Shown: positions 12,400-53,016, counted from the first letter of the stretch. The stretch is DNA of 64,000 nucleotides from an uncultured Actinomycetota bacterium (GCA_963696065.1 CAVOIF010000007.1:208707-272706); one strand, 5' to 3'. Notes: a model not told the origin generated them from the letters alone. A program made the numbers and translations.

Positions 12400-12421
12400 T
12401 GTCGGACCTCACGCCTAGCAT
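12400..12421 (+). promoter_or_regulatory. RecA-NDp-type (PafBC-dependent) promoter upstream of uvrA
   Basis: TGTCGG-ACCTCACGCC-TAGCAT exactly matches TGTCGG-N10-TANNNT. GTG at 12429 lies 7 nt downstream, consistent with a leaderless transcript. Confidence 0.8.
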
Positions 12422-12428
12422 GTGCAGC

Positions 12429-15400
12429 GTGATAGACCACCTCATCGTGCGCGGCGCCCGCGAGCACAATCTGCGGAACGTCGACATCACGCTCCCGCGC
12501 GATTCGCTGGTGGTTTTCACCGGGCTCTCGGGGTCGGGCAAGTCGTCGTTGGCGTTCGACACCATCTTCGCCGAGGGCCAGCGCCGGTACGTCGAGTCGT
12601 TGTCGTCCTATGCCCGGCAGTTCCTCGGCCAGATGGACAAGCCCGATGTCGACTTCATCGAGGGTCTGTCGCCGGCGGTGTCGATCGACCAGAAGTCGAC
12701 CTCCCGTAACCCGCGGTCGACGGTCGGCACGATCACCGAGATCTACGACTATCTCCGGTTGCTGTTCGCGCGGATCGGCCATCCGCACTGCCCGGTGTGC
12801 GGTGAGCCGATCGCCAAACAGACTCCCCAGCAGATCGTCGATCGGGTGCTGGAGATGCCGGAAGGCACCAGGTTCCAGGTGCTGGCGCCGGTGATCCGAG
12901 AGCGCAAGGGCGAATACGTCGACCTGATGACCGACCTGCAGTCCAAGGGCTACTCGCGGGTGCGGATCGACGGGACCGTCTACCCGCTCACCGATCCGCC
13001 GAAGCTGAAGAAGCAGGAGAAGCACTCGATCGAGGTAGTCGTCGACCGCCTGGTGATCCGGGCGACCGCGAAGCAGCGGATCACCGACTCCGTCGAGGTC
13101 GGGCTCGGACTTGCCGACGGTGTGGTCATCCTGGACTTCGTCGATTTGGACGAGGACGACCCGCTGCGCGAACGCCGCTACTCCGAGCGACTGGCCTGCC
13201 CGAACGATCACCGGCTGGCGCTGGATGAACTCGAGCCGCGGTCGTTCTCCTTCAACTCGCCGTTCGGCGCCTGCCCCGAGTGCACGGGCCTCGGTACCCG
13301 GAAAGAGGTCGATCCCGAGCTGGTGGTGCCGGACGGCGCCGCCTCGCTCGGCGGCGGGGCCATCCACCCGTGGTCGGCCGGCACCACCAGCGAGTACTTC
13401 ACGCGGCTGCTCCAGGGGCTGGCCGAGGTGATGGGCTTTTCCATGGACACCGCGTGGGACATGCTGCCGCCGCACGTCCGCAAGGCGGTGCTGCACGGGG
13501 TCGACGAGCAGGTCCACGTGACCTACCGCAACCGGTACAACCGGCAACGGTCGTACTACGCCGAATTCGAGGGCGTCATCCCGTTCCTCGAGCGCCGCGC
13601 CGCGCAGACCGACTCCGATTTCGCCCGGGAGAAGTACGAGGGCTACATGCGGGAGGTGCCCTGCCCCGCATGCCACGGCACCCGGCTCAAGCCCGAGATC
13701 CTCGCCGTCACCATCGAGCACTCCGAGCTCGGCCGGCAGAACATCTCCGAGCTCTCGGCGATGTCGATCAAGGATGCGGCCGCGTTCTTCCCCGGGCTTG
13801 TGCTGTCCGAGCGGGATCGGATGATTGCCGAACGGGTGCTCAAGGAGGTGCTCGCGCGGCTCGGGTTCCTGTTGGACGTCGGCCTCGACTATCTGTCGCT
13901 GAACCGGCCGGCGGCCACCCTGTCCGGCGGCGAGGCGCAGCGGATCCGGCTGGCCACCCAGATCGGCTCCGGGCTGGTCGGGGTGCTGTATGTGCTCGAC
14001 GAACCGTCGATCGGGCTGCACCAGCGAGACAACCATCGGCTGATCCAAACCCTCACCAGGCTGCGCGATCTCGGCAACACCCTGATCGTGGTCGAGCACG
14101 ACGAAGACACCATCCGGACCGCCGACTGGGTGGTGGACATCGGGCCGGGCGCCGGCGAGCACGGTGGCAAGGTGGTGGTGTCCGGAACTGTGCACGACCT
14201 GGAATCGTCGGCCGAGTCGATCACCGGTGCCTACATCTCCGGACGGCGGGAGATCGCGGTGCCGCTGGTCCGGCGGCCGGCGAACAAACGACGCAAGCTG
14301 ACCGTCGTCGGTGCCAGGGAGAACAACCTGCGCGACATCACCGTGGATTTCCCGCTCGGCACACTCATTGCGGTGACCGGGGTTTCGGGTTCCGGCAAGT
14401 CCACCTTGGTCAACGACATCCTGCACGCCGTCTTGGCCAACCGGATCAACGGCGCCAGGTTGGTGCCCGGTCGGCACACCAGGGTCACCGGCGTCGACGA
14501 GGTCGACAAGGTGGTCGGCGTCGATCAGTCGCCGATCGGCCGCACTCCGCGGTCAAACCCGGCGACCTACACGGGCGTGTTCGATCACGTCCGGAAGCTG
14601 TTCGCGTCGACCACCGAGGCGAAGGTGCGGGGTTACCAGCAGGGCCGGTTCTCGTTCAACGTCAAGGGTGGTCGGTGCGAGGCCTGCGCCGGTGACGGCA
14701 CCTTGAAGATCGAGATGAACTTCCTCCCGGACATCTACGTGCCCTGCGAGGTGTGCAAGGGCGCCCGGTTCAACCGCGAGACGCTCGAGGTCCACTACAA
14801 GGGCAAGAACATCGCCGAGGTGCTGGACACAACGATCGAGGAGGCGGCCGAATTCTTCGAGGCCATCGGTCCGATCCACCGGCACCTCAAGACGCTGGTC
14901 GAGGTCGGTCTCGGGTATGTCCGGCTGGGTCAGCCGGCGCCCACCCTGTCCGGCGGCGAGGCCCAGCGGGTGAAGTTGGCCTCCGAACTGCAGAAGCGCT
15001 CCACCGGCCGGACGGTGTACGTGCTGGACGAGCCGACCACGGGTCTGCATTTCGCCGATGTCGAGAAGCTGCTGGGAGTGGTCAACGGGCTGGTCGACAA
15101 GGGCAATACGGTGATCGTCATCGAGCACAATCTCGACGTGATCAAGACCGCCGACCACGTCATCGACATGGGTCCGGAAGGTGGTTCGGGCGGCGGTCTG
15201 GTGATCGCCGAAGGCACGCCGGAGGAGATCGCTGCCAATCCCGACTCCTACACCGGCCAGTTCCTGGCGCCGATCCTCGCCGGGCGGGCGGCCAGGACCG
15301 GCCGCGCCGGCGTCGCGGCGGCAACCGTCCGCAAACCCGCGGTGAAGCGGCCGGCGGCCAAGGCGAAGTCGGTCGCCGACCGAAACCGGCTGCCACGAAA

Positions 15401-15569
15401 CCGGTTGCTGCGAAGTCCGTTTCCCCGACGAACGGCGCCACGAGCAGCCCGGTGCGGTTGGCGACGGTCAACGGCACCAGCACGAACGGCACCGGTTCCA
15501 ACGGCGGTGGCACTATTGGCAGTGGCACTGCTGGCAGTGGCACCAACGGGAAGCCGAGGGCAGCGGTAG
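12429..15569 (+). CDS. uvrA: Excinuclease ABC subunit A; true end may be 15607 after an apparent frameshift near 15379
   Basis: '[13 protein letters not shown]', two Walker A motifs ([16 protein letters not shown]), two LSGGEAQR signatures, CxxC zinc fingers. Confidence 0.97.
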
Positions 15570-15625
15570 CGGCACAGGCGCGGCGACGGGCGGCCAAGCT
15601 GATCTAACGGCGGCTGATCTGACCG

Positions 15626-16432
15626 TCACCAGGTGTCGGTGAGCCGGGTGGTCGCCAGGAACGCCTGTCCGTCCGATTCTCGGAGTAGCACGAAACGTCC
15701 GGTGACGGCGGACTTCTCGATGCCGCCTCGACCGGTGCCGCGTTGATCGGTGCCGACTCGATCGGTGCGGCCCTGGCTGAGACCGCGGCGGCCCAGGTGC
15801 CACACCAGCACCCGGTCGCCTTCGCGCAGTGCTTCAGCGTCGCTGCGCGCGTGCACGATCAGCGCGCCACCGCCTGGCGCAGAGATGTCGGCCACCGACG
15901 ACTCACCACCGCCTGGCGCCGAGGTCTGATCGGTTAACGGGTCGCTGGTGTCGAGGTGCACCGGGACCACCACCGCACCCAGTCGCCGCTTGATCGGCGC
16001 TCCTTGCTTGGGGGGTGAGAGTGGTCGCGGCGGACCGACGATCGCCACCCGCGGCTGCGGTTTCGCCGGTCCGACCGCATCCGACGGCGCCGTTGTCACC
16101 AACGACTCCGCTGCCGCCGTCCGAGCCGTGGAATCCAATCGAGCCGACGAATCCAACTGATCCGATGGTGGGGATGCATCCGGCAACACCGATAGCCGGG
16201 TCGACGTCCACAGTGCCGCTTGCCGGGCAAGAAATACCGCTCCGATCACCAGCGCGCCGGCGATCAGCGTCGCGACGGCGGAGACCAAACCCCACGACGT
16301 CAGCGCCACCGCGAGCAGCACTGCTGCACCGACGGCCAGCAGGATCGTTGCTGCCAACCGGCACCGGCGCCCGAGCCGCAGCGACACCTCACCGTCCCGG
16401 TCGCCGACGGTCGGCCCGAACTCAGCCACCAT
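15626..16432 (-). CDS. Hypothetical membrane-anchored protein (two N-terminal TM helices, P/S/A-rich linker)
   Basis: 268-aa ORF filling the gap between uvrA and dyp; hydrophobic residues at about 25-70; no family recognised. Confidence 0.55.
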   Translation of the reverse strand: MVAEFGPTVGDRDGEVSLRLGRRCRLAATILLAVGAAVLLAVALTSWGLVSAVATLIAGALVIGAVFLARQAALWTSTRLSVLPDASPPSDQLDSSARLDSTARTAAAESLVTTAPSDAVGPAKPQPRVAIVGPPRPLSPPKQGAPIKRRLGAVVVPVHLDTSDPLTDQTSAPGGGESSVADISAPGGGALIVHARSDAEALREGDRVLVWHLGRRGLSQGRTDRVGTDQRGTGRGGIEKSAVTGRFVLLRESDGQAFLATTRLTDTW

Positions 16433-16543
16433 CGGCTGCGTTTCCGGACCTGCGCGTCATCACCGAACCGTAGCCAAGGCCTGAGCACCGCGGCGGGTCA
16501 GGCCGGTGGACCGGTTCGTCCGGTTGTCGGCAATACTCGTCGC

Positions 16544-17575
16544 GTGGCAGCAGTCGACGACCCCGAACCTCAGGCAGTGCTGAACGCCCTGAGTGAGGCC
16601 GCAGTTTTCCTGGTGCTGTCCGCGAATGATCGGCCCGGCGCTGATGACCGACTGCTCGATGTCGTCTCGGACATCAACTCGTTGGTGCGGGCGGTCGGGT
16701 TTCGCCAGTCGTCGAAGGCGATGGGCAGCGGACCGTTGTCCTGCGTCGTCGGGTTCGGCTCGTCGTACTGGGATCGCATTCGGCCGGCGGCCGATGCGAG
16801 ACCCGTTGGCCTGCATCCGTTCCGTCCGATCAAAGGTGCAGTGCACGACGCCCCGGCCACTCCCGGCGACGTTCTGCTGCACATCCGCGCGGATCGCTCC
16901 GACATCACCTTCGAGCTCAGCCGACAGATCATGGCGGCGCTCGGCCCCTGGGTGACCGTGCAGGATCACGTCACCGGCTTCCGCTACTTCGACGCGCGGG
17001 ATCTGCTCGGTTTCGTCGACGGCACGGAGAACCCGACCGGCCGCGGTGCCGCTGCCGCTGCGCTGATCGGTTCCAGCGAACCGGATTTCGTGAACGGTAG
17101 CTACGTCATCGTGCAGAAGTACCTGCACGACCTGCAGGCCTGGGGTCAGCTGAGCACCGAGGCGCAGGAGCGGATCATCGGTCGCACGAAGCTGGACGAC
17201 ATCGAGATCGACGACGATGTCCGCCCGACGAACTCGCACGTCTCGCTGAACACCATTGTCGACGAGAACGGCGTCGAGCAGGACATTCTCCGGGACAACA
17301 TGGTGTTCGGCGACGCCGGCGCCGATGAGTACGGCACCTACTACATCGCCTACGCCGCCGACTCGGCCGTCACCGAGCAGATGCTGGTCAACATGTTCGT
17401 CGGTCACCCTGCCGGCAATTACGACCGCATCCTGGACGTGTCCACCGCGGTGACCGGAACACTGTTCTTCGTGCCGTCGCTGGACCTGCTCGAGTCGCTC
17501 GGCGAGGAGGACAACACCGCAACCCCCTCCGACGGGTCGTTGGGGATCGGCAGTCTCAAGGGAGAACCACAGTGA
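16544..17575 (+). CDS. dyp: Dye-decolorizing (DyP-type) peroxidase with C-terminal encapsulin cargo-loading peptide
   Basis: 'DLLGFVDGTENP' (GxxDG), distal 'ILRDNM', 'NSHV', C-terminal DGSLGIGSLKG. Start GTG 16544 inferred from a -10-like hexamer 6 nt upstream. Confidence 0.93.
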   Translation: MAAVDDPEPQAVLNALSEAAVFLVLSANDRPGADDRLLDVVSDINSLVRAVGFRQSSKAMGSGPLSCVVGFGSSYWDRIRPAADARPVGLHPFRPIKGAVHDAPATPGDVLLHIRADRSDITFELSRQIMAALGPWVTVQDHVTGFRYFDARDLLGFVDGTENPTGRGAAAAALIGSSEPDFVNGSYVIVQKYLHDLQAWGQLSTEAQERIIGRTKLDDIEIDDDVRPTNSHVSLNTIVDENGVEQDILRDNMVFGDAGADEYGTYYIAYAADSAVTEQMLVNMFVGHPAGNYDRILDVSTAVTGTLFFVPSLDLLESLGEEDNTATPSDGSLGIGSLKGEPQ

Positions 17576-18390
17576 CAAGTTCGTCCGACACTGACAACAA
17601 CCTGCATCGCGCGCTGGCGCCGATCTCCGACGTCGCATGGCAACAGATCGCCGAGGAAGCCTCCCGCACCATCAAGCGGAACCTCGCCGCACGCCGGGTG
17701 GTCGACGTGGATGGACCACACGGCTACGGGCACGCGTCCGTCACCACCGGTCATGTGTCGGAGATCGCCGCGCCCACCGCCGAGGTTCGAGCCCGGCTCC
17801 GCGACGTGCTGCCGTTGGTCGAGATCCGGGTGCCGTTCACCCTCGACCGGTTGGCCATCGATGACGTCGCCAGGGGATCGCAGGACTCCGATTGGCAGCC
17901 GGTCAAGGACGCCGCGACGATCATCGCCCACACCGAGGATCGGGCCGTGTTCGAGGGCTACCCCGCGGCGTCGATTCAGGGAATCGGCGGCTCGTCGAGC
18001 AACCCCGCGATCCCGCTTCCCGAGGATCCCCGCAACTACCCGGACGCCGTTGCACAGGCGTTGTCGGAGCTGCGGTTGGCCGGCGTCGAGGGGCCGTACG
18101 CCCTGGTGCTGGACGCCGAGGCGTACACCGCAGTATCCGAAACCCGCGATCACGGCTATCCGATCCTTGCTCAGCTCAACCGGCTGGTGCCCGACGCCAT
18201 CGTCTGGGCGCCGGCGTTGCGGGGTGGATACCTGCTCACCACGCGAGGCGGCGACTTCGAGCTGACCATCGGCCAGGACGTCAGCATCGGGTATCTGCGG
18301 CACACCGACACCACCGTCGACCTCTACCTGCAGGAGACCTTCACCTTCTCGCCCTACACCGGCGAGGCATCGGTCTACCTCACCCGCTGA
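17572..18390 (+). CDS. Family 1 encapsulin shell protein (linocin M18/Cfp29-like)
   Basis: 'NNLHRALAPISDVAWQQI', 'ARRVVDVDGPHG', 'RGGDFELTIGQDVSIGY'; GTGA overlap with dyp. Confidence 0.95.
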   Translation: MTSSSDTDNNLHRALAPISDVAWQQIAEEASRTIKRNLAARRVVDVDGPHGYGHASVTTGHVSEIAAPTAEVRARLRDVLPLVEIRVPFTLDRLAIDDVARGSQDSDWQPVKDAATIIAHTEDRAVFEGYPAASIQGIGGSSSNPAIPLPEDPRNYPDAVAQALSELRLAGVEGPYALVLDAEAYTAVSETRDHGYPILAQLNRLVPDAIVWAPALRGGYLLTTRGGDFELTIGQDVSIGYLRHTDTTVDLYLQETFTFSPYTGEASVYLTR

Positions 18391-19077: not shown

Positions 19078-19121
19078 CGGCCGGCGCCGAACCGCCGGAG
19101 CAATCCGGCCGCCGATCCACC

Positions 19122-20122: not shown

Positions 20123-21064
20123 TCAGACGTCGAAAGCGGCGTCCGCGGTGACGGGTCGGGTGACGGCGGGATCGTCAACAGCAGGGCCGCCGACAGCGGG
20201 ATCTGCAACTGCGGAATCGGCAGCACCCGGGTTCCCGGGGTACGGCGGCGGGGTACCGCCGAACTCCGGGCACACCGACTGATGCGCGCAGTACCGGCAC
20301 ATGCCGCTGGGCCGCGGGGGGAAGTTTCCGGTCTCCAATGCGCTGGTGATCGCCGCCCACAGTGCGACGACGCCGTTCTCGAAGCTGAGCAACTCGGATT
20401 CCGACGGCGCGTACTGCAACGACATGCCGTCGGCCAGGTAGATCAGTTTGAGCTGCGCCGGGACGACGCCACGCAGCCGATAGATCATCAACGCGTAGAA
20501 CTTCAACTGGTACAGCGCCCTGGCCTCGAAATCCGGGTCGGGCGAGAAGCCGGTCTTGTAGTCGACCACCCGGAGTTGGCCGGTCGGCGCAAGGTCGAGT
20601 CGGTCGAGGAAACCCCGCAGCGGAACAGCGTTGGCCACCTCGATCTCCACCGCGAACTCGCAGGCCTCCGGGTCGAAACGCCGTGGATCCTCGAGGGTGA
20701 AGTACGTGCGGACCAGGTCCTGCGCGGACGACAACCAGGCCGCCAGTTCGTCATCGGGCAACAGGCCGTTCAGCTCGGGATACTCCTGCGCCATCCGCTC
20801 CCACGCCGGTCCGATCGCCGCGGCCGTCAGCTCGGGTGTCCGCTCGGCCGCGGGCCTGCCGAACATCTGCTCCAGCACGCTGTGCACCAGGGTGCCCCGC
20901 GCGGCGGGCGCGCTCGGCGGCTCGGGGAGCCGGTCGACGGCCCGGTACCGGTAGAGCAACGGGCAGGTCTTGAAATCACCGGCCCTGGAGGGCGACAGCG
21001 CCAGCGGACGCCGGGTCAGGGGCGCGATCGACTCCGACGGGTCGGCGGCGATCGAAGTGGACAT
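20123..21064 (-). CDS. RecB-family PD-(D/E)XK exonuclease (Rv2119-like)
   Basis: 'LSPSRAGDFKTCPLLYRY', 'LRGFLDRLD', 'VVDYKTG', 'QLKFYAL', C-terminal CxxCx5C; conserved position next to trmI/arc. Confidence 0.92.
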   Translation of the reverse strand: MSTSIAADPSESIAPLTRRPLALSPSRAGDFKTCPLLYRYRAVDRLPEPPSAPAARGTLVHSVLEQMFGRPAAERTPELTAAAIGPAWERMAQEYPELNGLLPDDELAAWLSSAQDLVRTYFTLEDPRRFDPEACEFAVEIEVANAVPLRGFLDRLDLAPTGQLRVVDYKTGFSPDPDFEARALYQLKFYALMIYRLRGVVPAQLKLIYLADGMSLQYAPSESELLSFENGVVALWAAITSALETGNFPPRPSGMCRYCAHQSVCPEFGGTPPPYPGNPGAADSAVADPAVGGPAVDDPAVTRPVTADAAFDV

Positions 21065-21070
21065 ACGTCA

Positions 21071-21092
21071 ACGGTAGGTCACGGGTCCGACA
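21071..21092 (-). promoter_or_regulatory. RecA-NDp-type (PafBC-dependent) promoter of the RecB-like nuclease
   Basis: Minus strand reads TGTCGG-ACCCGTGACC-TACCGT, then 6 nt, then the ATG (leaderless geometry). Confidence 0.82.
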
Positions 21093-21189: not shown

Positions 21190-22359
21190 ATGGTGAAGTC
21201 CAGTGCGTCCGGTACCGCCGCGCCCCGCCCGCGGGAGTCCCCGCGCGGGTTCGCCATGGGCCGGATCGGCGGTGTGCCGGTCGTGGTGTCGCCGTCCTGG
21301 GTGCTCTCGGTCGCGGTGATCGTGGCGCTCGGCGTGCCGGTCATCTCACAGGTGGTGCCGGGTACCGGTACCGGGCTGGCCATCGCGATGTCGATCATTC
21401 TCGGTGTGCTGCTCGGTGTCAGCGTGCTGGCCCACGAACTCGGGCACTGTTGGGCCGCCCGCGTGCTCGGCATGCAGGTGGTCGGCGTTCGGCTCTACTT
21501 GCTCGGTGGGGTCTCGGAGCTGTCGAAGGCACCCCGATCGCCCCGGGAGGAGGCGATCATCGCCGCCGCCGGACCGGCGGTCTCGGCCGTCATCGCGGGC
21601 GCCTTCTGGATCGCCGTCGCCGCGACCACGCCCGGCACCGTCGGCTGGTTGTTGGTGATGCTGCTCGCGCTGTCCAATCTGGTGGTCGCGGTGTTCAACC
21701 TGCTGCCCGCGTTGCCGTTGGATGGCGGCCGGGTGCTGCGGGCCGGCGTGTGGAGCGCGTTCGGCAACCGGGGCGCCGGCACGACAGCAGCGGTGATCGG
21801 TGGCTACGTCATCGCCGTGGCGCTGGTCGGCTGGGCGGTCCTGATGCTGCTCGATGCCGGGTCCGCCGGGCTGTTGCCCGCCGGGATCGCCGTGGCGATG
21901 GCCTTGTTCGTCGCGGTCGGTGCGGCCGGTGAGGGTCGGCAGCACGGGCGCTCGGCCGGCTGGCCGGCGGATGTGCCCATCGCTTCCATCGCGCGCCCGG
22001 TCGCCCAACTCCCCACCGAGACCCCCGTCGCCCTCGCTCTCGAAGCGGCTGCGGAACGGGACGTGGTGCTGACCGAGGCGGACGGGGTCGCTCGCGGGCT
22101 GCTCGACATTCCGGCCGCCCGGGCGCTGGCCGATCGTGATCCACGCGCACCCGCGTCGCTGGTTTCCCGGCCGTGGCGACCGGAGACGATTGTGCTCACC
22201 GACGACGATCCGTCCGAGATCGCCGAGCGCACCAGGGTCGTCGACGCCGCAGACTTCCTGTTGGTCGACGAGTCGGGCCAGCCGGCCGGCGTGCTGCGAC
22301 GGGAGGACATTGTCGCCGTGTTGAACAGCTCCCGATCCCGAAAATGGTCGCGTCAGTGA
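21190..22359 (+). CDS. Site-2 protease (M50) family membrane metalloprotease with degenerate C-terminal CBS-like region
   Basis: HExxH motif 'AHELGHC', 'AGPAVS', 'NLLPALPLDGGRVL'. Confidence 0.9.
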   Translation: MVKSSASGTAAPRPRESPRGFAMGRIGGVPVVVSPSWVLSVAVIVALGVPVISQVVPGTGTGLAIAMSIILGVLLGVSVLAHELGHCWAARVLGMQVVGVRLYLLGGVSELSKAPRSPREEAIIAAAGPAVSAVIAGAFWIAVAATTPGTVGWLLVMLLALSNLVVAVFNLLPALPLDGGRVLRAGVWSAFGNRGAGTTAAVIGGYVIAVALVGWAVLMLLDAGSAGLLPAGIAVAMALFVAVGAAGEGRQHGRSAGWPADVPIASIARPVAQLPTETPVALALEAAAERDVVLTEADGVARGLLDIPAARALADRDPRAPASLVSRPWRPETIVLTDDDPSEIAERTRVVDAADFLLVDESGQPAGVLRREDIVAVLNSSRSRKWSRQ

Positions 22360-22372
22360 CCCGGCACCGTAG

Positions 22373-23230
<858 letters not shown>

Positions 23231-23430
23231 CCGAAGCGGTCGCGCGACGTTTTCCCGGCATGACAGCCGGGTAACAATCTGACTGCGCCGGAGGTCACAC
23301 CTCCGGGCGGATCCATCCCCGCAGCTCCCCGCGTGCGTCGAAATCGCCTGCTCAGAGCCATGATGGCCGATCTCGGCGGTGGCGACATGATCTCGAACAC
23401 ACGTGCAGTCGAGCGCAAATTCCCCGGCTC

Positions 23431-23452
23431 TGTCGGTTGCCACAGGTAGGCT
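23431..23452 (+). promoter_or_regulatory. RecA-NDp-type promoter upstream of arc
   Basis: TGTCGG-TTGCCACAGG-TAGGCT, exact spacing, 37 nt before the arc start. Confidence 0.75.
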
Positions 23453-23489
23453 TTGAGTTTGCAGGGCTCCGACTCGAGGGGAGGGCAAT

Positions 23490-25274
23490 GTGACCGATTT
23501 CGACTCATCGGACGGTGCCGGACAGGGTTCGGGCTCCGGCCCGGAGGACGGTTACCGCCAGACCCCGGCGCAATTGAGCGCCCAGATTCGCGTGTTGAAC
23601 GACGAGGTGGCGCAGCTCCGGCGCCGGCTTGCGATCGTGCCCAGTGACACCCGCCCCCTGGAACGTCAGCTCACCGAATCCGCCAATCGGATCAACGCGC
23701 TGTCGGAGCGGAACGAAAAACTGGTCGTCACCCTGCGGGATGCCCGCGCCCAGCTGCTGCAGCTCAAGGAAGAGGTCGACCGGCTCGCGCAGCCGCCGAG
23801 CGGCTACGGCGTTTTCCTCTCGTCGGGTCCGGACGGCTCGGTGGAGGTCTTCACCGGTGGTCGTCGGATGCGTCTTGCGGTGTCACCCACGGTCGAGGTG
23901 GACACCCTCAAGCGCGGGCAGCAGGTTCGGTTGAACGAAGCCCTGACGGTGGTCGAAGCGGGCCACTACGACGTCATCGGTGAGGTCTGCTCGCTCCGCG
24001 AGGTGCTCGACGGCGACCGTGCGCTGGTCGTCGGACACGCCGACGAGGAGCGGGTCGTCCACCTGGCAGCCCCCCTGATGGACATCGCTCTGAAGCCGGG
24101 CGATTCCCTGCTGGTGGACAGCAAGGCCGGCTACGCCTACGAGCGGGTGCCGAAGTCCGAGGTCGAAGACCTTGTGCTGGAAGAGGTCCCGGACGTCGAG
24201 TACGGCGACATCGGTGGCCTGATCCGGCAGATCGAGCAGATCCGAGACGCCGTCGAACTCCCGTTCCTGCATGCTGATCTGTTCGCCGAGTACCAGCTGC
24301 GGCCGCCCAAGGGTGTCCTGCTCTACGGACCGCCCGGTTGCGGCAAGACGCTGATCGCCAAGGCGGTGGCCAACTCGCTCGCCAAGCAGGTGGCCCTGTT
24401 GCGCGGCGAGGAGAAGGTCACCAGCTACTTCCTGAACATCAAGGGTCCGGAGCTGCTCAACAAGTACGTCGGCGAGACCGAACGGACGATCCGGCTGATC
24501 TTCCAACGCGCCCGGGAGAAGGCCTCGGACGGCACCCCGGTGATCGTGTTCTTCGACGAGATGGACTCGGTGTTCCGGACCCGTGGGACCGGCGTCTCCT
24601 CCGATGTGGAGACCACGATCGTTCCGCAGCTGCTCAGCGAGATCGACGGCGTGGAGGGTTTGGAGAACGTCATCGTGATCGGCGCCTCCAACCGCGAGGA
24701 CATGATCGATCCGGCGATCCTGCGACCGGGTCGACTCGACGTGAAGATCAAGATCGAACGGCCGGACGCCGAGGCCGCCAGGGACATCTTCACCAAGTAT
24801 CTGATTCCCGAGTTGCCGATCCACCCGGAGGACCTCGCCGAGTTCGGCGGCGACCGTCGGGATTGCATCGCGGCGATGATCCAGCACACCGTCGAGCGGA
24901 TGTACACCGAGACGGACGAGAACCGGTTCCTCGAGGTCACCTACGCGAACGGGGACAAGGAGGTCCTGTACTTCAAGGACTTCAACTCCGGTGCCATGAT
25001 CCAGAACATCGTCGACCGAGCCAAGAAGTCCGCCATCAAGGCGCGGATCGAAACCGGGATCAACGGGCTCCGGGTGTCCCAATTGCTCGAGGCGATCACC
25101 GACGAGTTCGCCGAGAACGAGGATCTGCCCAACACCACGAACCCGGACGACTGGGCGCGGATCTCGGGCAAGAAGGGTGAGCGGATCGTCTACATCCGCA
25201 CGCTGGTGTCGGGCAAGCAGTCAGAGGGCTCGCGGGCCATCGACACGGCGTCCAACACGGGTCAGTACCTGTAA
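23490..25274 (+). CDS. arc: Proteasome-associated AAA+ ATPase (ARC/Mpa)
   Basis: N-terminal coiled coil, 'LAQPPSGYG', Walker A GPPGCGKT, Walker B FFDEMD, C-terminal GQYL motif. Confidence 0.97.
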
Positions 25275-25283
25275 CTTGCCCGG

Positions 25284-26297
25284 GTGAACAGTCCGATGAC
25301 GGACCCTCGGTTTGTCATGCCCACCGTCGGGCCGGTGCGCCGGCGGCGGCGGGCACGATGGGCGCTGGGCACCGCTGTGCTGGGTCGTCCGGCCTACATC
25401 AACACCGGCAGCACCGACGAGCTGCCCCGGCATCGCGACGTCGAGTCGTTCCGCGACAACACCTTTCGCGTGTTGGACGCGGCAACGGCGGCGGGTGTGG
25501 ACTGGATTGACACCGCCCGTTCGTACGGTCGCGCGGAGGAGTTCGTCGGGCAGTGGTGGCGACAACGCGCCGAGGCCGACCCCGACTGGCCGGCGAAGGC
25601 GCCGACCATCTCCAGCAAGTGGGGCTACGAGTACGTCGGCAACTGGGACCCGTCCGCCGCGGTGCACGAGGTGAAGAACCACACGCTCGAACAATTCGAG
25701 CGTCAGCTCGCGTTGACCAGGGCAACCCTGCCGAGGTTCCAGCTCTACCAGGTGCACTCGCTGACGCCGGATTCACCGTTGTTCGGGGACGACGAGCTGT
25801 TGGACGCGTTGGCGGACCTCCGCGACGCCGGTGTGGCAGTGGGCTTCTCGGTGTCCGGACCGGCGCAAGGGGAGACGATCCTGCGCGCGCTGGACGTCGA
25901 CCGCGCGGGCGCCGCGTTGTTCTCGTCGGTCCAGGCGACCTGGAACCTGTTGGAGACCAGTGCCGCGGCCGCGCTGGCCACCGCGTCACGCCGTGAGGTC
26001 ACGGTGATCGTCAAGGAGGCATTGGCGAACGGTCGACTGGTGACCGACCCACCACCGGCATTGCTGGCGGTCGCCGGCCGGCTCGGGGTCGGTCCCGATG
26101 CGGTGGCGTTGGCGGCCGCCGGCCAGCAGCCGTGGGCGGATCGGGTGTTGCTCGGTGCGGCCGGGGTCGGGCAACTCCACGCGAACCTGCTTGCCGACCG
26201 ACTCGATCTGTCCGGCGATGATCTGGCCGAACTGACCGGTTCGGCGGAGCCGGCGGAGGAGTACTGGGCCGCCAGGTCCGCGCTGCCCTGGGCGTGA
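25284..26297 (+). CDS. Aldo/keto reductase
   Basis: 'LGTAVLGRPAYIN', 'WIDTARSYG', 'SSKWGY', 'LYQVHS', 'KEALANG'. Confidence 0.88.
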   Translation: MNSPMTDPRFVMPTVGPVRRRRRARWALGTAVLGRPAYINTGSTDELPRHRDVESFRDNTFRVLDAATAAGVDWIDTARSYGRAEEFVGQWWRQRAEADPDWPAKAPTISSKWGYEYVGNWDPSAAVHEVKNHTLEQFERQLALTRATLPRFQLYQVHSLTPDSPLFGDDELLDALADLRDAGVAVGFSVSGPAQGETILRALDVDRAGAALFSSVQATWNLLETSAAAALATASRREVTVIVKEALANGRLVTDPPPALLAVAGRLGVGPDAVALAAAGQQPWADRVLLGAAGVGQLHANLLADRLDLSGDDLAELTGSAEPAEEYWAARSALPWA

Positions 26298-26304
26298 AGT
26301 GCGA

Positions 26305-27540
26305 TCAGTCGATCGGATCCGTCCCGATGTCCGAACCGTCCATCGCGGTCAGCCCGGCGTCCAGTTCGTCCAGGATCCGGCCGGTCTCCACCACCAGCGC
26401 CCCGAGGAACACCCCGCGAGACAGGTTGGCCGCCAACATGTCGCCGAGGTCGGCGTTGATGGCGGTGATCCGCTCCCTGGCGAGATCGATGGAGCGCCGC
26501 GCGGCGTTGCCGACCACCACGGCCTTGGTGTCCTTCTCGGCGCGCAGCATGGTGTGCGCGAACGCCTCGATGGCATCGCTGGTGGCCGCGAGCATTCCCG
26601 ACGCCATCGGCATCGGCGGTTGTCGACCGGTCCCGCTCGGCAGCTTGGTGGCAATGTCCCGCAGCGTGCGAGCGAGCGTCCGCACCTGGACCTCGACGAT
26701 CTGCAGGGTGTCGTTGGTCTGCTTCAGCCGCTCCAGCGAGCCGGTCCAGGAAGATCGACCCGGATGCATCTGTAACGACTGACTCGCCCGTTCGACATCG
26801 GACTCCGCCACGGTGGCGAATCGCCCGTGGTCACGAGCGGTCCGCAGCCAGCCGGCGGCGTGCTCGATCGGCCAGGGAACACTGATCCCCTCAGCCATCG
26901 ATGCCAGCACGTCGGCGACGCCGTCGGCCAGCGCGGCCACCGACCTGGTCGCGGACGAGACATAATTCGGCGGGATGACGGCGAAGTTGACGACCACCGC
27001 CACCCCGGCGCCGAGCAGCGTGTCCAGCAGCCGGTCGGTCACCTGCCCGCCCCCGCTGCCCAGAGCCAACACGAACAGGCCGTTGATCGGGATCTGCGCC
27101 GCGGCGCCGCCGTTCAGCCGCAAGACCTTTCCAACCAGGAATCCCACCGCCACGATCACCGCGATCGACCAGGCGTGCAGACCGATGATCCCGCCGAGCA
27201 GGATCGCCACCGCGATCCCGATCAGCACCGCGACGATCTTCTCCACCGCGTCCCGGATCGACGCCTGCACCGTCAGCAGGGCGATCAGCGAGGCCGTGAT
27301 CGGCGCCCAGATCGGTGACGGAGAACTGAACCACCAGGAAGCCAGTGCCCAGGAAAGACCGGCCGAGAGGGCGATCTTCAGTGCCTGGACGAGCACCGAA
27401 CGGTCGATGTTGAGCAGCTCGCCGAGCGGTCGATCGCGCCACCGGCGGCTCCCGGTGATGCCTTGCAGCCAGGAGTTCCAGCGGGCGCTCAGGGCGCGCC
27501 GGCCGGGTTCTTCGGCCAAGGTCGGCGGTGCGGGGTCCAT
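26305..27540 (-). CDS. FUSC / aromatic acid exporter family membrane protein
   Basis: 'QALKIALSAGLSWALA', 'PIWAPITASL', 'QIPINGLFVL', followed by a helical cytoplasmic tail. Confidence 0.78.
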   Translation of the reverse strand: MDPAPPTLAEEPGRRALSARWNSWLQGITGSRRWRDRPLGELLNIDRSVLVQALKIALSAGLSWALASWWFSSPSPIWAPITASLIALLTVQASIRDAVEKIVAVLIGIAVAILLGGIIGLHAWSIAVIVAVGFLVGKVLRLNGGAAAQIPINGLFVLALGSGGGQVTDRLLDTLLGAGVAVVVNFAVIPPNYVSSATRSVAALADGVADVLASMAEGISVPWPIEHAAGWLRTARDHGRFATVAESDVERASQSLQMHPGRSSWTGSLERLKQTNDTLQIVEVQVRTLARTLRDIATKLPSGTGRQPPMPMASGMLAATSDAIEAFAHTMLRAEKDTKAVVVGNAARRSIDLARERITAINADLGDMLAANLSRGVFLGALVVETGRILDELDAGLTAMDGSDIGTDPID

Positions 27541-27559
27541 GTAGCTGATCCTGCCGCAC

Positions 27560-27565
27560 TAGATT
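27560..27565 (+). promoter_or_regulatory. -10 hexamer (TAGATT) of probable leaderless dop transcript
   Basis: TANNNT located 6 nt before the dop ATG; no RBS. Confidence 0.6.
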
Positions 27566-27571
27566 CGAATC

Positions 27572-29083: not shown

Positions 29084-29120
29084 CAATCGGCGGCGGCCAT
29101 CCGGGGTGCTCCGCGTCCGT

Positions 29121-29142
29121 TGTCGGTCCCCGTGGGTAAAGT
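29121..29142 (+). promoter_or_regulatory. RecA-NDp-type promoter upstream of pup-prcB-prcA
   Basis: (T)TGTCGG-TCCCCGTGGG-TAAAGT, exact spacing, in the dop-pup intergenic region. Confidence 0.75.
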
Positions 29143-29176
29143 CGGCAGCAGCGATCCAGAGATCGGAGAAATGAAT

Positions 29177-29374
29177 ATGGCCCAGGAACAGACCACTCGA
29201 CAGGGTGGCGGGGACGGCGACGACGACGCTGCCGATGCCGCCGGTGCTGCCGGTCAGGAGCGGCGGGAGAAGCTGGCCGCCGAGACCGACGACATCCTCG
29301 ACGAGATCGACGACGTGCTGGAATCCAACGCGGAGGACTTCGTTCGGTCCTACGTGCAGAAGGGCGGCCAGTGA
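29177..29374 (+). CDS. pup: Prokaryotic ubiquitin-like protein Pup (Gln-terminated)
   Basis: '[28 protein letters not shown]'. Confidence 0.97.
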
Positions 29375-30246: not shown

Positions 30247-30323
30247 CTGCCCGCAGCGTCGACCGAGAACGCCGGAATTGATCGCTTCGTACAGCGACCT
30301 CGTCAGCAAGGAGCCCGTCCACC

Positions 30324-44262: not shown

Positions 44263-46923
44263 GTGACGACGAGTGACCGGTTTGTCGCCGAGCCCACGCG
44301 GTCCAGTTCGGCACTCGGTTCCGCGGCCGATCTCTGGGTCCGGGCCCGGAATCGGGTCGATTTCGGCCGCCCGGCCACCGGGCTGAAGTTGGGTGCGCGG
44401 GCCCTGGAACACCTGCGCACCGAGCACGTCCCGGAGGGCCAGGCGGCGGTGCTGCGCTCGCGGATCCTGGTCACCATGGCCGACGCCCAGGTCGAACTGG
44501 GCCGCACCGCCGAGGCCGACGACCTGCTGGATGCCGCGCTGCAGCAGAGCGCGACGGCGTTGCCGATGGTGCAGGCCTCCCGCGGAGTGTTGCTGGCCAG
44601 GACGGGCCGGCTGCCCGAGGCCCGGCAGCAACTGGATGCGGGAGTGGCCGCGTTGTCGCAGAGCAGCCGGCCGAGTGCGAACCTGGTGCGTGCGCTGCTG
44701 TGGCGGGGCCTGCTGCACCTGAGCGAGGCGAGACTGGATGCGGCGCAGGCGGACTGCGAGGTGGTCGTCGAGCTCGGCCGATCGACCGGCATGGACCCGG
44801 CCGTCGCGGTGGCCACCCACAATCTCGGTCTGGTGCGGTGGGTCTCCGGCGATCTTCCGGGTGCGTTGCACGAGATGGCGCTCGCCGACGAGGTCGCCCA
44901 CGATGTGCGCGCCGGCATCCGATCCCTCGATCGGGCCCGCGTGCTGCTGGCCGCCGGTCTGCTACTGGAGGCCAGGGAGTTCGCCGACCGGGCGGAGCGG
45001 GTGTTCGCCAGCGAACGGGCCAAAGTCGATCTCGCGGACGCCTTGCTGGTGCAGGCGGAGATCGACATCGTCGCTCGGCGGGCCAAGGCGGCGCGGTCGG
45101 CGGCCCGCCGGTCCGCGCGCAACTACGCCCTGGCCGGGTACGAACGCGGCGTGCTCGCGGCCAGGGTGATGGAGGTCAGGGCAGAGGCGAACGTCCGGGC
45201 CGCCATCCGGCCGTTGCCGCGCCGGCAGGCGCTGCAGGATGCGAGTGCGGCCGAGGCGCTGGTCACCGATCTGCTGACTGCCGGTCAACAGGAGGATGCC
45301 CGGGCGGTGCGGCTGCTGCAGGCAGAGGCGTTGCTGCAGGCCGGCGACCTCCCCGCTGCGGAGACCGCTGCCGAGGCGGCCGCCGGTCTCGGAGCCGGCA
45401 ACGGATCGGCCAACCGGGCGGCCCGGGTGCCGTTGATCGCCACCGAGCTGCACACCCAGGTCATTGCGGCCCGCATCGAGCTCGCCCACGGCCGCCGGTC
45501 GTCCGGGTTGGCGCACATCAGGCGCGGGCTGGACGACCTTGCCGCCTACCAGGCCCGCTTCGGCTCCCAGGACCTGCAATCGGCGTCCGCCGTGCACGGT
45601 AGCGAGCTGACCAGGTTGGGGCTGCGCACTGCACTGCAGACTCGCTCACCGGCGGCGATCCTGCAGTGGCTGGAACGATCCCGCGCGGCGAGCACCAGGT
45701 TGGCCGCGGTCCGTCCGTCGATGGACGGTGTGCTGGCCCGGGAGCTGAGCAAGCTGCGGATGGCCTCCTACCGCGCCCGCATGGCGTTGCTGGCCGGGGC
45801 CGCCGACCCGGACATCGAGGACGAGGTCGACCAGTTGCGGCGCCGGGTGCGGTCCCGTTCCTGGGGCGTGGTGGGCACCGGCGCGGTGAACCGGCCGTTG
45901 CCGTTGGCCGCCGTGCAGCGCCGGCTGGCGGACACCGGCGAGCGGATCAGCGTGGTCGCGCCGTTCCGCGGCAACGGCCAGTTCCATGCGTTGGTGATCA
46001 CCTCCGGCACCGCCCGCTACGTCCCGCTCGGACCGGATTTCGGCCTCGAGTACCACCTGCAGCGGATCATCGGCGACCTGAACGTGTTGGCCGATCACCG
46101 GATCATGCAGGCCCTTCGGTCGGTGGCGGACGTGTCGCTGCGGGCCGGGCTGGGCAGGGTCGCGCGGTTCATCGTCGATCCGCTGCTGCCGTTTGTCGAT
46201 CAAGGACCGATCGTGGTGGCGGCGGCCGGGTCGGCCGCCATCGTGCCCTGGGCGCTGTTGCCCGGGCTGGACGGTCGCGCGGTGTCTGTCAGTCCGTCGG
46301 TGACCGCCGCGGTCGCCCACCTCGGCCAGACCCGGCAGGTCCACCGGCGCGGGGTGCTGGCGGTCGCCGGCCCGGAGGTGCCGCACGCCGGGCGTGAGGT
46401 CGACAGTGTGCTGGCCGCCTACCGGCCGGCGCCGACGGACGCGTCGACGAACGGCTCGACCAGCCAACTCACCGGTCCGGCCGCCACCGGACGGGCCGTG
46501 CTGGAGGCGATCCCGGCCGGCGGGCTGCTGCACATCGCCGCCCACGGCCATCACGAGCCGGACAACCCGCTCTTCTCCGGAGTGCTGCTGGCGGACGGTC
46601 TGTTGTACGGGTACGACGTCGCGCCGAACCCGTCGATCCCGGCCCAGGTCGTGCTCTCCAGCTGTGACGTCGGCCGCACCGACGACCGGCCGGGCAGCGA
46701 GCCGCTCGGCCTGGTCGCGGCCCTGTTGCGCAGCGGGGTGTCGACGGTGATCGCCGGCACCAGCCGGGTGTCCGATCAGGTGGCGGCGAGCGTGATGGCT
46801 GCCTACCACCAGCGGTTGAGTGCCGACCAGGCGCCGGCCATCGCGCTGGCCGGGGCGATCGCGACCACCGCCGGCAGCGGCGCCGATCCGGCGCCCTTCA
46901 CCTGTTTCGGGGCCGGCCTGTAG
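44263..46923 (+). CDS. TPR-CHAT (caspase-like) protease 2, intact, 886 aa
   Basis: Ala/Leu/Arg-rich helical repeats with 'THNLG'; CHAT 'VPWALLPGL', His 'HIAAHG' (46543), Cys 'LSSCD' (46663), end 'PAPFTCFGAG'. Confidence 0.92.
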   Translation: MTTSDRFVAEPTRSSSALGSAADLWVRARNRVDFGRPATGLKLGARALEHLRTEHVPEGQAAVLRSRILVTMADAQVELGRTAEADDLLDAALQQSATALPMVQASRGVLLARTGRLPEARQQLDAGVAALSQSSRPSANLVRALLWRGLLHLSEARLDAAQADCEVVVELGRSTGMDPAVAVATHNLGLVRWVSGDLPGALHEMALADEVAHDVRAGIRSLDRARVLLAAGLLLEAREFADRAERVFASERAKVDLADALLVQAEIDIVARRAKAARSAARRSARNYALAGYERGVLAARVMEVRAEANVRAAIRPLPRRQALQDASAAEALVTDLLTAGQQEDARAVRLLQAEALLQAGDLPAAETAAEAAAGLGAGNGSANRAARVPLIATELHTQVIAARIELAHGRRSSGLAHIRRGLDDLAAYQARFGSQDLQSASAVHGSELTRLGLRTALQTRSPAAILQWLERSRAASTRLAAVRPSMDGVLARELSKLRMASYRARMALLAGAADPDIEDEVDQLRRRVRSRSWGVVGTGAVNRPLPLAAVQRRLADTGERISVVAPFRGNGQFHALVITSGTARYVPLGPDFGLEYHLQRIIGDLNVLADHRIMQALRSVADVSLRAGLGRVARFIVDPLLPFVDQGPIVVAAAGSAAIVPWALLPGLDGRAVSVSPSVTAAVAHLGQTRQVHRRGVLAVAGPEVPHAGREVDSVLAAYRPAPTDASTNGSTSQLTGPAATGRAVLEAIPAGGLLHIAAHGHHEPDNPLFSGVLLADGLLYGYDVAPNPSIPAQVVLSSCDVGRTDDRPGSEPLGLVAALLRSGVSTVIAGTSRVSDQVAASVMAAYHQRLSADQAPAIALAGAIATTAGSGADPAPFTCFGAGL

Positions 46924-49627: not shown

Positions 49628-49650
49628 CCGAAGAACCGCCCACCGACGGC

Positions 49651-49656
49651 TACTCT
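49651..49656 (+). promoter_or_regulatory. -10 hexamer (TACTCT) of probable leaderless pafA transcript
   Basis: TANNNT located 7 nt before the pafA ATG; no RBS. Confidence 0.55.
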
Positions 49657-49663
49657 CGGGCCC

Positions 49664-51022
49664 ATGCAGCGGCGGATCATGGGGATCGAAACCGAGTTCG
49701 GTATCACCTGCACGTTTCACGGTCAGCGACGGCTGAGCCCGGACGAAGTGGCCCGGTACCTGTTCCGCCGCGTGGTGTCCTGGGGTCGCTCGTCGAACGT
49801 GTTCCTGCGCAACGGGTCCCGGCTATATCTCGACGTCGGCTCGCACCCCGAGTACGCGACCGCCGAATGCGATGACCTGCCGACCCTGATCGCCCACGAC
49901 AAGGCGGGGGAGCAGATCCTGCAGGACCTGGTCGTCGACGCCGAGGCCAGGCTCGCCGAGGAGGGCATCGGCGGTGACATCTACCTGTTCAAGAACAACA
50001 CCGACTCGGCCGGAAACTCCTACGGGTGCCACGAGAACTTCCTGATCGCCAGGGGTGGCGAGTTCGCCAAGATCGCCGACGGGCTGATCCCGTTCCTGGT
50101 CACCCGGCAGTTGATCGCCGGCGCCGGCAAGGTGCTGCAGTCGCCGCGCGGTGCGTCCTATTGCCTGTCCCAGCGGGCCGATCACATCTGGGAGGGGGTG
50201 TCCAGTGCCACCACCCGGTCCCGGCCGATCATCAACACCCGGGACGAACCGCACGCCGACGCGGAGCGCTACCGGCGGCTGCACGTCATCGTCGGCGACT
50301 CCAACATGTGCGAGACGACCACCCTGGTCAAGGTGGGCAGCGCGGCACTGGTGCTGGAGATGATCGAGGCCGGAGTGGCGCTGCGCGACTTCACCTTCGA
50401 GAACCCGATCCGGGCGATCCGGGAGATCTCGCACGACACCACCGGCCGCAAGCCGGTCCGGCTGGCCGGCGGCGGTGACATCTCGGCACTGGAGGCGCAG
50501 ACCGAGTACTACACCAGGGCCGTCGAGTACGTCGAGAAGCGCGGCAACGACCCGGTCACCGCTCGGGTGCTCGACCTGTGGAAGCGGACGTTGACGGCGG
50601 TGGAGACCCAGGATTTCTCCGGGGTGGACACCGAGATCGACTGGATCATCAAGAAGAAACTCATCGACTCGTACGCGGCCAAGAACAACCTGGACCTGAC
50701 CCATCCGCGGATCGCCCAGCTCGATCTGACCTATCACGACGTGCGGACCGGACGTGGCCTGCATTCCCTGCTGGTCGCCAAGGGTCGTGCCGCCCGGGTG
50801 GTCACCGACGAACAGGTCGTCGAGGCCACCACCGTCCCGCCGCAGACCACCCGCGCACGGTTGCGCGGCGAGTTCGTGGCCGCCGCCCAGGATGCCGGCC
50901 GGGACTACACCGTCGACTGGGTGCACCTCAAGCTCAACGATCAGGCGCAGCGGACGGTGCTGCTGAAGGACCCGTTCCGGTCGACCGACGACCGGGTGAC
51001 CAAACTGATCGAGGCCATGTAG
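49664..51022 (+). CDS. pafA: Pup-protein ligase
   Basis: '[11 protein letters not shown]', '[17 protein letters not shown]', '[16 protein letters not shown]', 'LLKDPF'. Confidence 0.97.
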
Positions 51023-51073
51023 GCATGCCCGGCGGCGGCCGGTGACGGTCGGCGGATATGACAGTCTTGATCC

Positions 51074-52057
51074 GTGGCAACGGCGAAGGCGGAGCGACTG
51101 CTCAACCTGGTGATCGCCCTGGTCAATTCGCCGCGGTACCGCACCGCGCAGTGGATCAGGGAGAAGGTCGCCGGGTACTCCGACGCGCCCAACGACGAGG
51201 CCTTCTTCCGCACCTTCGAGCGGGACAAGCAGGAACTGCGGGAGCTCGGCATCCCGGTCCAGACCCCGCCGGCCGGCGAGGACGGGTACCGGATTCCGCC
51301 GGTGGACTTCGCGTTGCCCGCGATGTCGTTCACCCCGGCGGAGGCGGCCGCGCTGGCGTTGGCCGGGCGGCTCTGGGAGACGACGGCGCTGGGTACCGCG
51401 GGGACCGGGGCGCTCCGCAAGATCCGTGACGCGGCGAGCGCCGAGGCGCCGCAACCGGGCGCCGACATCACCGCAGACACCCTGCTACAGCCACGGGTCC
51501 GCACCGGCGACCCGGCGTTCGCGCCGTTGTACGCCGCGGTCCGGGCTCGCCGTGCCGTCACCTTCGACTACCGCAAGGACAGCACCGAACCGGCCTCCAC
51601 CCGGCGGCTGCAACCGTGGGGGTTGGTCTCCTTCCGCGGGCGCTGGTACGTCACCGGCTTCGACGAGAGACGCGGCGAGCGCCGCACTTTCCGGCTGTCC
51701 AGGATCGCAGGCCCGGTGAAGGCGGTCGGCCGGCCAGGCGCCGTCACCCCGCCCGCCGACATCGACCTGCTCGCCGAGGTGGCCGCCAGCGTCGAGGTGC
51801 CGGCCGACCGCACCGCAACGGTGCGGATCCGGCCGGGGCTGGCCGCCGGGCTGCGCCGGCATGCCGTGGCCGCGACCGAATCCGCGGACCCACCCGGCTG
51901 GGACCGGGTGACCATCCCGCTCGGCTCGCTGTGGGACACCGCCCGGCGGATCGCCGCCAACGGCCCGGACGTCGTCGTCGAGGAACCGGCCGACCTGGTG
52001 GACGCCACCGTCCGGCTGCTCACCGGAACCCTGCACGGCAGCAGGCAACTGCGATGA
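51074..52057 (+). CDS. pafB: WYL-domain transcriptional activator subunit PafB
   Basis: 'KAERLLNLVIAL', 'RTFERDKQELRELG', WYL 'PWGLVSFRGRWYV...TFRLSRI'. Confidence 0.93.
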   Translation: MATAKAERLLNLVIALVNSPRYRTAQWIREKVAGYSDAPNDEAFFRTFERDKQELRELGIPVQTPPAGEDGYRIPPVDFALPAMSFTPAEAAALALAGRLWETTALGTAGTGALRKIRDAASAEAPQPGADITADTLLQPRVRTGDPAFAPLYAAVRARRAVTFDYRKDSTEPASTRRLQPWGLVSFRGRWYVTGFDERRGERRTFRLSRIAGPVKAVGRPGAVTPPADIDLLAEVAASVEVPADRTATVRIRPGLAAGLRRHAVAATESADPPGWDRVTIPLGSLWDTARRIAANGPDVVVEEPADLVDATVRLLTGTLHGSRQLR

Positions 52058-53016
52058 GCGAGACCGCCACCGACCGGCTGGCCCGGATGCTCGCCCTCGT
52101 CCCCTACATCTCCAGGCGGCCAGGGGTGGCCATCGCCGAGCTCGCGACCGAGTTCGGGGTCAGCGTCGAGCAGATCGGGGCCGACCTCGATCTGCTGATG
52201 GTCTGCGGCCTGCCCGGCTACTACCCGGACGACCTGATCGACGTGGTGCTGGACGACGACGGCGGAACGGTTGCGATCGCCTTCGACGCCGGCATCGAAC
52301 GACCCGTCCGCTTGACCGCAGACGAGGCTTACGCACTGATGGTGGCGTTGCGCGCGCTGGCCGAGATGCCTGGCCTGGTCGACGCGCAGGCCGTGCACTC
52401 CGCGCTGGCCAAGCTGGAAAAGGTCGGTGGCCGAACAGGTGCGGCCACCGACGCGGTCCGGGTGGTCCCGGCCGACCCGGCGCCGGCGCTGGGCGTTGTC
52501 CGGCGCGCGCTCGACGAGACCCGGCGGATCTGGATCCGCTACTACACCGCTTCCCGCGACGCCGTCACCGAACGAACGGTGGATCCACTGCGGCTGCTGG
52601 TCACCGATGGCCATTCCTACCTCGAGGCGTACTGCCACCTGGCCGGGGCGATCCGGCACTTCCGGGTCGACCGGATCGAGGAGGTCCGGCTGCTGGACGA
52701 ACCGGCGCAGGCCACGCTGTGGGTGGACTCGGAGATCCCGGAACGGATCTTCCACCCGGATCCGCAGATCCCGCCGGTCACCCTCACCCTGTCCAACGCC
52801 GCGCGGTGGGTGGCGGAGTACTACCCGATGGAGGAGGTCACGGAGCTCGCCGAACCGGCCGGGTCGCTGCGGGTGCGGATGCGGGCCGGTAGCGACGAGT
52901 GGCTGGCCCGGCTGGTGCTCTCGCTCGGCGGCGACGCGGTGATCGAGGACCGCCCGGAACTCGACACGCTGGTCGGCGAGCGGGCGGCGGCCGCGCTGGC
53001 GGCGTACCAGAACTGA
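52054..53016 (+). CDS. pafC: WYL-domain transcriptional activator subunit PafC
   Basis: 'RLARMLALVPYI', 'CGLPGYYPDDLID', 'RTVDPLRL...YLEAYCH...FRVDRI'; ATGA coupling to pafB. Confidence 0.93.
   Translation: MSETATDRLARMLALVPYISRRPGVAIAELATEFGVSVEQIGADLDLLMVCGLPGYYPDDLIDVVLDDDGGTVAIAFDAGIERPVRLTADEAYALMVALRALAEMPGLVDAQAVHSALAKLEKVGGRTGAATDAVRVVPADPAPALGVVRRALDETRRIWIRYYTASRDAVTERTVDPLRLLVTDGHSYLEAYCHLAGAIRHFRVDRIEEVRLLDEPAQATLWVDSEIPERIFHPDPQIPPVTLTLSNAARWVAEYYPMEEVTELAEPAGSLRVRMRAGSDEWLARLVLSLGGDAVIEDRPELDTLVGERAAAALAAYQN

Follow-up and report, generated by a model that had tools for sequence, protein, structure and literature searches.

A 64,000-nt stretch of DNA from an uncultured Actinomycetota bacterium (GCA_963696065.1, CAVOIF010000007.1:208707-272706), hereafter the window, with positions counted from its first nucleotide, was analysed for promoters of the type served by the DNA damage activator PafBC. 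The genome is 5.79 Mb in size with a GC content of 67.7%, and the window carries a complete and clustered Pup-proteasome system (PPS) locus in the arrangement arc ... dop-pup-prcB-prcA ... pafA-pafB-pafC, as assigned with Pfam. The pattern TGTCGG-N10-TANNNT, the core of the PafBC motif tGTCgg(N10)tA(N3)T derived from chromatin immunoprecipitation sequencing (ChIP-seq) (PMC8635444), was used as the search pattern and gave exactly four matches in the window, in front of uvrA, a RecB-like nuclease gene, arc and pup. The promoters before pup and arc are, judged by their sequence, very likely real PafBC-type promoters, the predicted assignment being strong for pup and good for arc, and pup-prcBA and arc would be additional members of a known promoter and regulon class. 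The four sites are as follows.

12400-12421 (+): uvrA promoter, TGTCGG-N10-TAGCAT
21071-21092 (-): RecB-like nuclease promoter, TGTCGG-N10-TACCGT
23431-23452 (+): arc promoter, TGTCGG-N10-TAGGCT
29121-29142 (+): pup-prcB-prcA promoter, TGTCGG-N10-TAAAGT

The first-pass annotation, made from the window alone, had placed four such sites just upstream of gene starts, with pafBC in the same window. Both points were borne out, in that the sites were recovered at 12400, 21092 (minus strand), 23431 and 29121, and pafBC was found 22 kb downstream. The genes concerned were identified with Pfam, and their start codons and overlaps were read off the sequence.

12429-15569 (+): uvrA, with Pfam UvrA_inter, UvrA_DNA-bind and ABC_tran; leaderless GTG start
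20123-21064 (-): PD-(D/E)XK RecB-like nuclease, Pfam PDDEXK_1 (E=1.3e-37); leaderless ATG at 21064
23490-25274 (+): arc/mpa, proteasomal AAA+ ATPase, with Pfam AAA, Prot_ATP_ID_OB_N and Prot_ATP_ID_OB_C; GTG start
27572-29083 (+): dop, Pup deamidase/depupylase, Pfam Pup_ligase (E=1e-178); leaderless ATG
29177-29374 (+): pup, 65 aa with the C-terminal end ...KGGQ, Pfam Pup (E=9e-23); ATG start
29371-30246 (+): prcB, proteasome beta subunit, Pfam Proteasome; start overlaps the pup stop (GTGA)
30324-31169 (+): prcA, proteasome alpha subunit, Pfam Proteasome; 77 nt past prcB, with its own GGAG Shine-Dalgarno sequence
49664-51022 (+): pafA, Pup ligase, Pfam Pup_ligase (E=4e-167); leaderless ATG
51074-52057 (+): pafB, Pfam WYL and WCX
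52054-53016 (+): pafC, Pfam HTH_PafC, WYL and WCX; start overlaps the pafB stop (ATGA)

Start codons follow the -10 box after 7 nt in uvrA and 6 nt in the nuclease gene, so both transcripts should be leaderless, and after 37 nt in arc and 34 nt in pup, where Shine-Dalgarno sequences are found in the arc leader (GGGAGG) and in the pup leader. In upstream alignments of genus relatives, the GTG of uvrA is invariant and the start of pup, ATGGCCCAGGAACAG, is conserved. A consensus scan of 22300-31400 detected no paired sigma-70 -35/-10 promoter, and reading of the sequences 16-18 nt upstream of the -10 box at the four sites found nothing resembling TTGACA. Co-regulation by LexA was also considered and rejected, as no SOS-box-like site with two or fewer mismatches was found near any of the four promoters. 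The nuclease gene is positioned upstream of trmI and arc.

The same type of promoter is reportedly what Gamulin et al. described in 2004 as the RecA-NDp motif, tTGTCRgtg-N8-TAnnnT, before its regulator was known. The window sites share with RecA-NDp the TGTCR core and its distance to the -10 box, but differ in having no 'gtg' extension, the positions of which are occupied by ACC, ACC, TTG and TCC, and the long consensus TGTCRGTG-N8-TANNNT had no match in the window.

The upstream regions of dop, pafA and pafB are different. As the first-pass annotation had held, dop and pafA carry only plain -10 boxes (TAGATT at 27560-27565 and TACTCT at 49651-49656, respectively), located 6-7 nt ahead of the leaderless ATG, with no GTC at -26 in front of either gene, and reading of the sequence upstream of pafB revealed no PafBC motif. 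The interval between dop and pup contains no detected terminator. The dop start lies 31 nt from a divergent gene for a FUSC-like membrane protein (26305-27540, minus strand), which is overlapped by two plus-strand open reading frames (ORFs) with no Pfam match (26294-26782 and 26827-27318).

The specificity of the motif was evaluated on the whole genome, using as the chance control the 59 other permutations of the hexamer at the same spacing in the real 5.8 Mb sequence. TGTCGG-N10-TANNNT occurred 42 times, whereas the permuted hexamers occurred 2.07 times on average and 8 times at most. A match was counted as being in promoter position if at most 80 nt separated it from the 5' end of a downstream ORF that was long and had high G+C at third codon positions; 26 of the 42 matches were in such a position and 15 were leaderless, against control averages of 0.32 and 0.12, respectively. 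The comparison of 42 matches with about two in the control indicates that ~95% of the exact matches should be functional, corresponding to a false-discovery rate of ~5%. For a 64-kb stretch, the earlier estimate of 0.15 chance matches agreed well with the 0.18 obtained by dinucleotide shuffling; this null overestimates chance, and the stricter permuted-hexamer control gave an expectation of only ~0.02.

The other exact matches precede genes typical of the PafBC regulon, namely uvrB, polA, ligA, radA, a recQ-like helicase gene and dnaX, as identified by Pfam, and recA, recN, uvrC and sbcD, as identified from their N-terminal sequences. By predicted gene content, the genes behind the exact matches form the canonical PafBC regulon, and, as had been proposed from the window alone, arc and pup-prcBA appear to share the promoter type of the bona fide PafBC targets of this genome. 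PafB aligns over its full length to the M. smegmatis PafB of the RNA polymerase (RNAP)-PafBC structure (7P5X; E=9e-64), and it retains R46 and R50, the two arginines that recognise the two guanines in GTC (PMC8635444).

Exact motifs also stand in front of five paralogous genes of ~420-440 aa on other parts of the genome (C1:1024317 (-), C1:581052 (-), C3:489912 (+), C3:923058 (-) and C5:555679 (-)). One of the five was run through Pfam and matched only DUF222, of the 13E12-repeat type; its C-terminal end looks HNH-like by eye. Genes of the 13E12 family are damage-inducible in M. tuberculosis.

Conservation of the sites was examined in upstream regions from 24 genomes of the genus, one genome from each of 16 further families of the order, 60 more genomes across the order, 80 genomes of the class, and 80 named loci. 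M. tuberculosis H37Rv and M. smegmatis are outside the named loci, and H37Rv is also outside the 120 Mycobacterium genomes drawn. The uvrA promoter, which served as the calibrator, was kept as cTGTCGG-N10-TAnCAT in 23/23 genus genomes. At pup, GTC-N12-TAnnnT was present in 15 of the 23 genus genomes, nine of them with the exact motif, and a further genome had an 11-nt spacer and two had GTT in the place of GTC. Beyond the genus, the -26 element before pup was found in 22/30 genomes from other families of the order and in 16/30 genomes from other orders of the class, including all four large genomes of one family. The chance rate of the relaxed pattern is ~3e-5 per position, or ~0.003 per 100-nt upstream region. 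In the pup alignments the GTC and the TA...T stand out as conserved columns against a freely varying spacer, as would be expected for the footprint of a promoter made of two parts.

Among the named loci, the pup element was found in all 17 of Nocardia, 11 of them exact, and in 4/5 of the Pseudonocardiaceae; TGTCGG is exact in two Amycolatopsis loci from metagenome-assembled genomes (MAGs) and in Saccharomonospora, it reads TGTCGT in A. pithecellobii, and no element was seen in Actinomycetospora. Lower counts were obtained for Rhodococcus and relatives (2/8), Gordonia (1/3) and Tsukamurella (0/2). The slow-growing M. asiaticum and M. gordonae carry cGTCGG-N10-TAGGGT before pup; in the fast-growing Mycolicibacterium flavescens and M. 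iranicum, and in many MAG or unnamed Mycobacterium loci, the -26 GTC is absent and the -10 box is invariant. Read across these alignments, the element before pup is widespread among Actinomycetes, and the fast-growing mycobacteria that were sampled lack it.

The -10 region of pup has a feature of its own. GGTAnnnT, located ~45-75 nt upstream of pup, was invariant in all 80 named Mycobacteriales loci, even in those without the -26 GTC, which is unusually strict conservation for a -10 box and two preceding G residues. A further exact site, TGTCGG-N10-TAGCGT, lies in M. asiaticum (L104:1438-1458) right after the mpa stop (...GQYL*), and a leaderless ATG 7 nt past it opens a gene starting MRLRFGTSDYHAF; this position, between mpa and dop, places a PafBC-type promoter within the PPS locus of that species.

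The situation at arc is more mixed. All through the genus, arc keeps its -10 box (TAGGnT) and its leader; the -26 GTC was found in ~8/17 genus genomes and is absent in about half. The check named in the first-pass annotation, conservation of the motifs in close relatives, came out in favour for pup and only in part for arc. Exact TGTCGG-N10-TAnnnT was found before arc in five genus genomes at three different distances from the start, and in the Pseudonocardiaceae two Amycolatopsis loci (L165, L170) and Saccharomonospora (L166) share before arc an exact motif of identical sequence, TGTCGGTGATCGCCGGTACCGT, which is also found before arc in G038. As only about two exact matches per genome are expected by chance, repeated independent sites within 250 nt before arc are implausible as coincidences. 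In our reading, arc probably has a PafBC-independent promoter, with PafBC input acquired or retained in some lineages, among them that of this genome.

Collectively, these observations lead us to favour, with reasonable though not high confidence, a model in which hybrid promoters of the PafBC "sigma adaptation" type control the repair genes together with pup-prcBA and arc and give a damage-induced, self-limiting circuit. The four sites would be such hybrid promoters. DNA damage would generate single-stranded DNA and with it active PafBC, which would insert between the -26 element and sigma region 4 so that the housekeeping RNAP-SigA can fire, and Pup, the 20S core and ARC would be raised along with the repair enzymes. 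The dop, pafA and pafBC genes, with ordinary leaderless promoters that have only a -10 box, would stay constitutive. Since the PPS degrades RecA and other members of the PafBC regulon in recovery from damage (PMC8223512), the arrangement would act as a delayed negative feedback or an incoherent feed-forward, the activator of the repair proteins also raising the capacity to pupylate and degrade them after damage. PafBC occupancy, damage inducibility and the physiological feedback are what we infer from the promoters.

Several published observations weigh against this model. Olivencia et al. found the levels of Dop, Mpa, PrcA and PrcB unchanged in an unstressed M. smegmatis ΔpafBC strain, and leave the link between PafBC and the PPS open (PMC5656591), and in Adefisayo et al. 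(Nucleic Acids Research, 2021) PafBC is said not to function in the PPS (PMC8682763). Stratton et al. report that conservation of the M. smegmatis motif in S. venezuelae was not apparent from a first search (PMC9380542). For M. tuberculosis, Table S7 of Brzostek et al. gives no PafBC candidate between Rv2100 and Rv2119 and none for Rv2109c-Rv2115c, and PrcA, PrcB and Mpa show no clear induction by mitomycin C, with mean label-free quantification values (10^6) in the wild type of 257/347, 356/265 and 302/321, respectively, without/with the drug (n=2) (PMC8151990). The arc promoter adds to this side: about half of the genus lacks the -26 element, and since the -10 box and the leader persist there, the promoter can work without PafBC and induction may be modest. 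As for M. smegmatis, the absence of the pup -26 element from the sampled fast-growing species means that its negative result may not bear on the question.

The main rival accepts the PafBC input as real and assigns it a different role, in which it would set the basal level of Pup, proteasome and ARC, most transcripts would come from the -10-only core and by read-through from dop, and there would be little or no inducible feedback. We regard this as unlikely, although several facts fit it. PafBC does have basal activity, as the basal RecA level falls in unstressed M. smegmatis ΔpafBC (PMC5656591), the lack of a detected terminator between dop and pup would allow read-through, and the persistence of the arc -10 box and leader in genus members lacking the -26 element agrees with a PafBC-independent core. 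The M. tuberculosis proteins also barely shift with mitomycin C (PMC8151990). However, the latter data are at the protein level, from a low dose and from two replicates, and the same promoter architecture drives the strongly damage-inducible recA and uvrA in mycobacteria (PMC8223512, PMC8635444). The fixed spacing of GTC to the -10 box across the class also suggests selection for a regulated input.

Two other explanations are less likely than the basal-level one. The -26 GTCGG before pup and arc might be read by another regulator, such as ClgR or another WYL-family activator, which we consider improbable. ClgR operators are palindromes of the CGC-N5-GCG kind, and none was seen by eye upstream of pup. 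The pup and arc sites are, moreover, indistinguishable from those of uvrA, recA and uvrB in the same genome, and the motif and its spacing have been assigned to PafBC by ChIP-seq together with a cryo-electron microscopy structure (PMC8635444). On the other side, according to work cited by Olivencia et al., ClgR binds the P1/RecA-NDp motif and its overexpression induces prcBA in M. tuberculosis (PMC5656591), and other WYL activators with sites of their own exist in mycobacteria, such as SiwR (PMC10693628). That the arc and/or pup matches have no regulatory role, having arisen by chance or been inherited, and that function is confined to the uvrA and nuclease sites, is the least probable explanation of all, because, although high-GC genomes are rich in GTCGG-like strings and about half of the genus has no arc element, the permuted hexamers gave ~2 matches per genome versus 42 (the ~5% false-discovery rate above), the pup element is kept across orders with varying spacers, and the exact sites before arc are independent, differ in position and extend to another family.

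If the damage-induced circuit is correct, it would bear on the relationship of PafBC to the proteasome. PafBC was named as a proteasome accessory factor and later said to have no PPS role beyond sharing an operon with pafA. The accepted link has so far been only the degradation of RecA and other regulon members by the proteasome in recovery; the review from the Weber-Ban laboratory explains the link between PafBC and the PPS by pupylation and degradation of these proteins alone, and pup, prcBA and mpa are not among the targets in its list of the PafBC regulon, which includes uvrA (PMC8223512). In the literature examined, no paper was found that reports PafBC-type promoters at pup or arc; a mention is possible in Müller et al. 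2018, including its supplementary ChIP tables, or in Gamulin et al. 2004. If a PafBC-type promoter is conserved at pup-prcBA, and in some lineages at arc, the direct connection that has been missing would be in place, and proteolytic capacity is predicted to be co-induced with repair to yield a self-limiting damage response. The prediction is also relevant to the genomic association of pafBC with the proteasome locus.

A further reading, which we put forward tentatively and would not yet back, is that the PafBC-type promoter before pup, and before prcBA where present, is ancestral to the class Actinomycetes, that the old circuit explains the linkage of pafBC to the Pup-proteasome locus, and that the promoter was lost in fast-growing mycobacteria. 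If so, a damage activator would directly drive the tag and the protease, and in some lineages ARC, which would later clear the products of its own regulon, and the loss in the lineage that includes M. smegmatis would explain how the link was missed. That the sampled fast-growing relatives lack the element could plausibly account for its having escaped notice in M. smegmatis studies.

Compared with the M. smegmatis PafBC system, the window sites have the same organization as its PafBC promoters (e.g., recA P1), with a -26 hexamer, a 10-nt spacer to the SigA -10 box, no -35 element, and many leaderless starts. R46/R50 of PafB and a core of the regulon, comprising uvrA, uvrB, uvrC, recA, radA and others, are also shared. 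The difference is that this promoter type here also precedes pup-prcBA and arc, which are not listed as targets in the literature examined. A comparable circuit logic is known from yeast, in which proteasome genes are under the stress-responsive activator Rpn4 and the response is subsequently curbed by the proteasome, although the proteins and the promoter mechanism are unrelated to PafBC and Rpn4 is itself a proteasome substrate.

The nuclease gene has a possible counterpart in M. tuberculosis. For Rv2119, which encodes a RecB-like exonuclease, Brzostek et al. list TGTCGG-N10-TAAGCT at 7 nt from the start codon, and they report induction by mitomycin C in a ΔrecA strain, that is, without RecA (PMC8151990). 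The window nuclease is like it in the exact motif, the leaderless start and the Pfam type, and this parallel supports the nuclease site as an ordinary regulon member.

Some other genes of the window were noted. Between uvrA and the nuclease gene lies an encapsulin shell gene (17572-18390, plus strand; Pfam Linocin_M18, E=1e-94), directly preceded by a 451-aa ORF (16220-17575, plus strand) that may encode its cargo enzyme. Downstream of prcA, the protein encoded at 31373-32212 has a weak, sub-threshold match to sigma-70 region 2, and it is followed by an S8 subtilase at 32824-34353; an 886-aa TPR-CHAT protein is encoded at 44263-46923.

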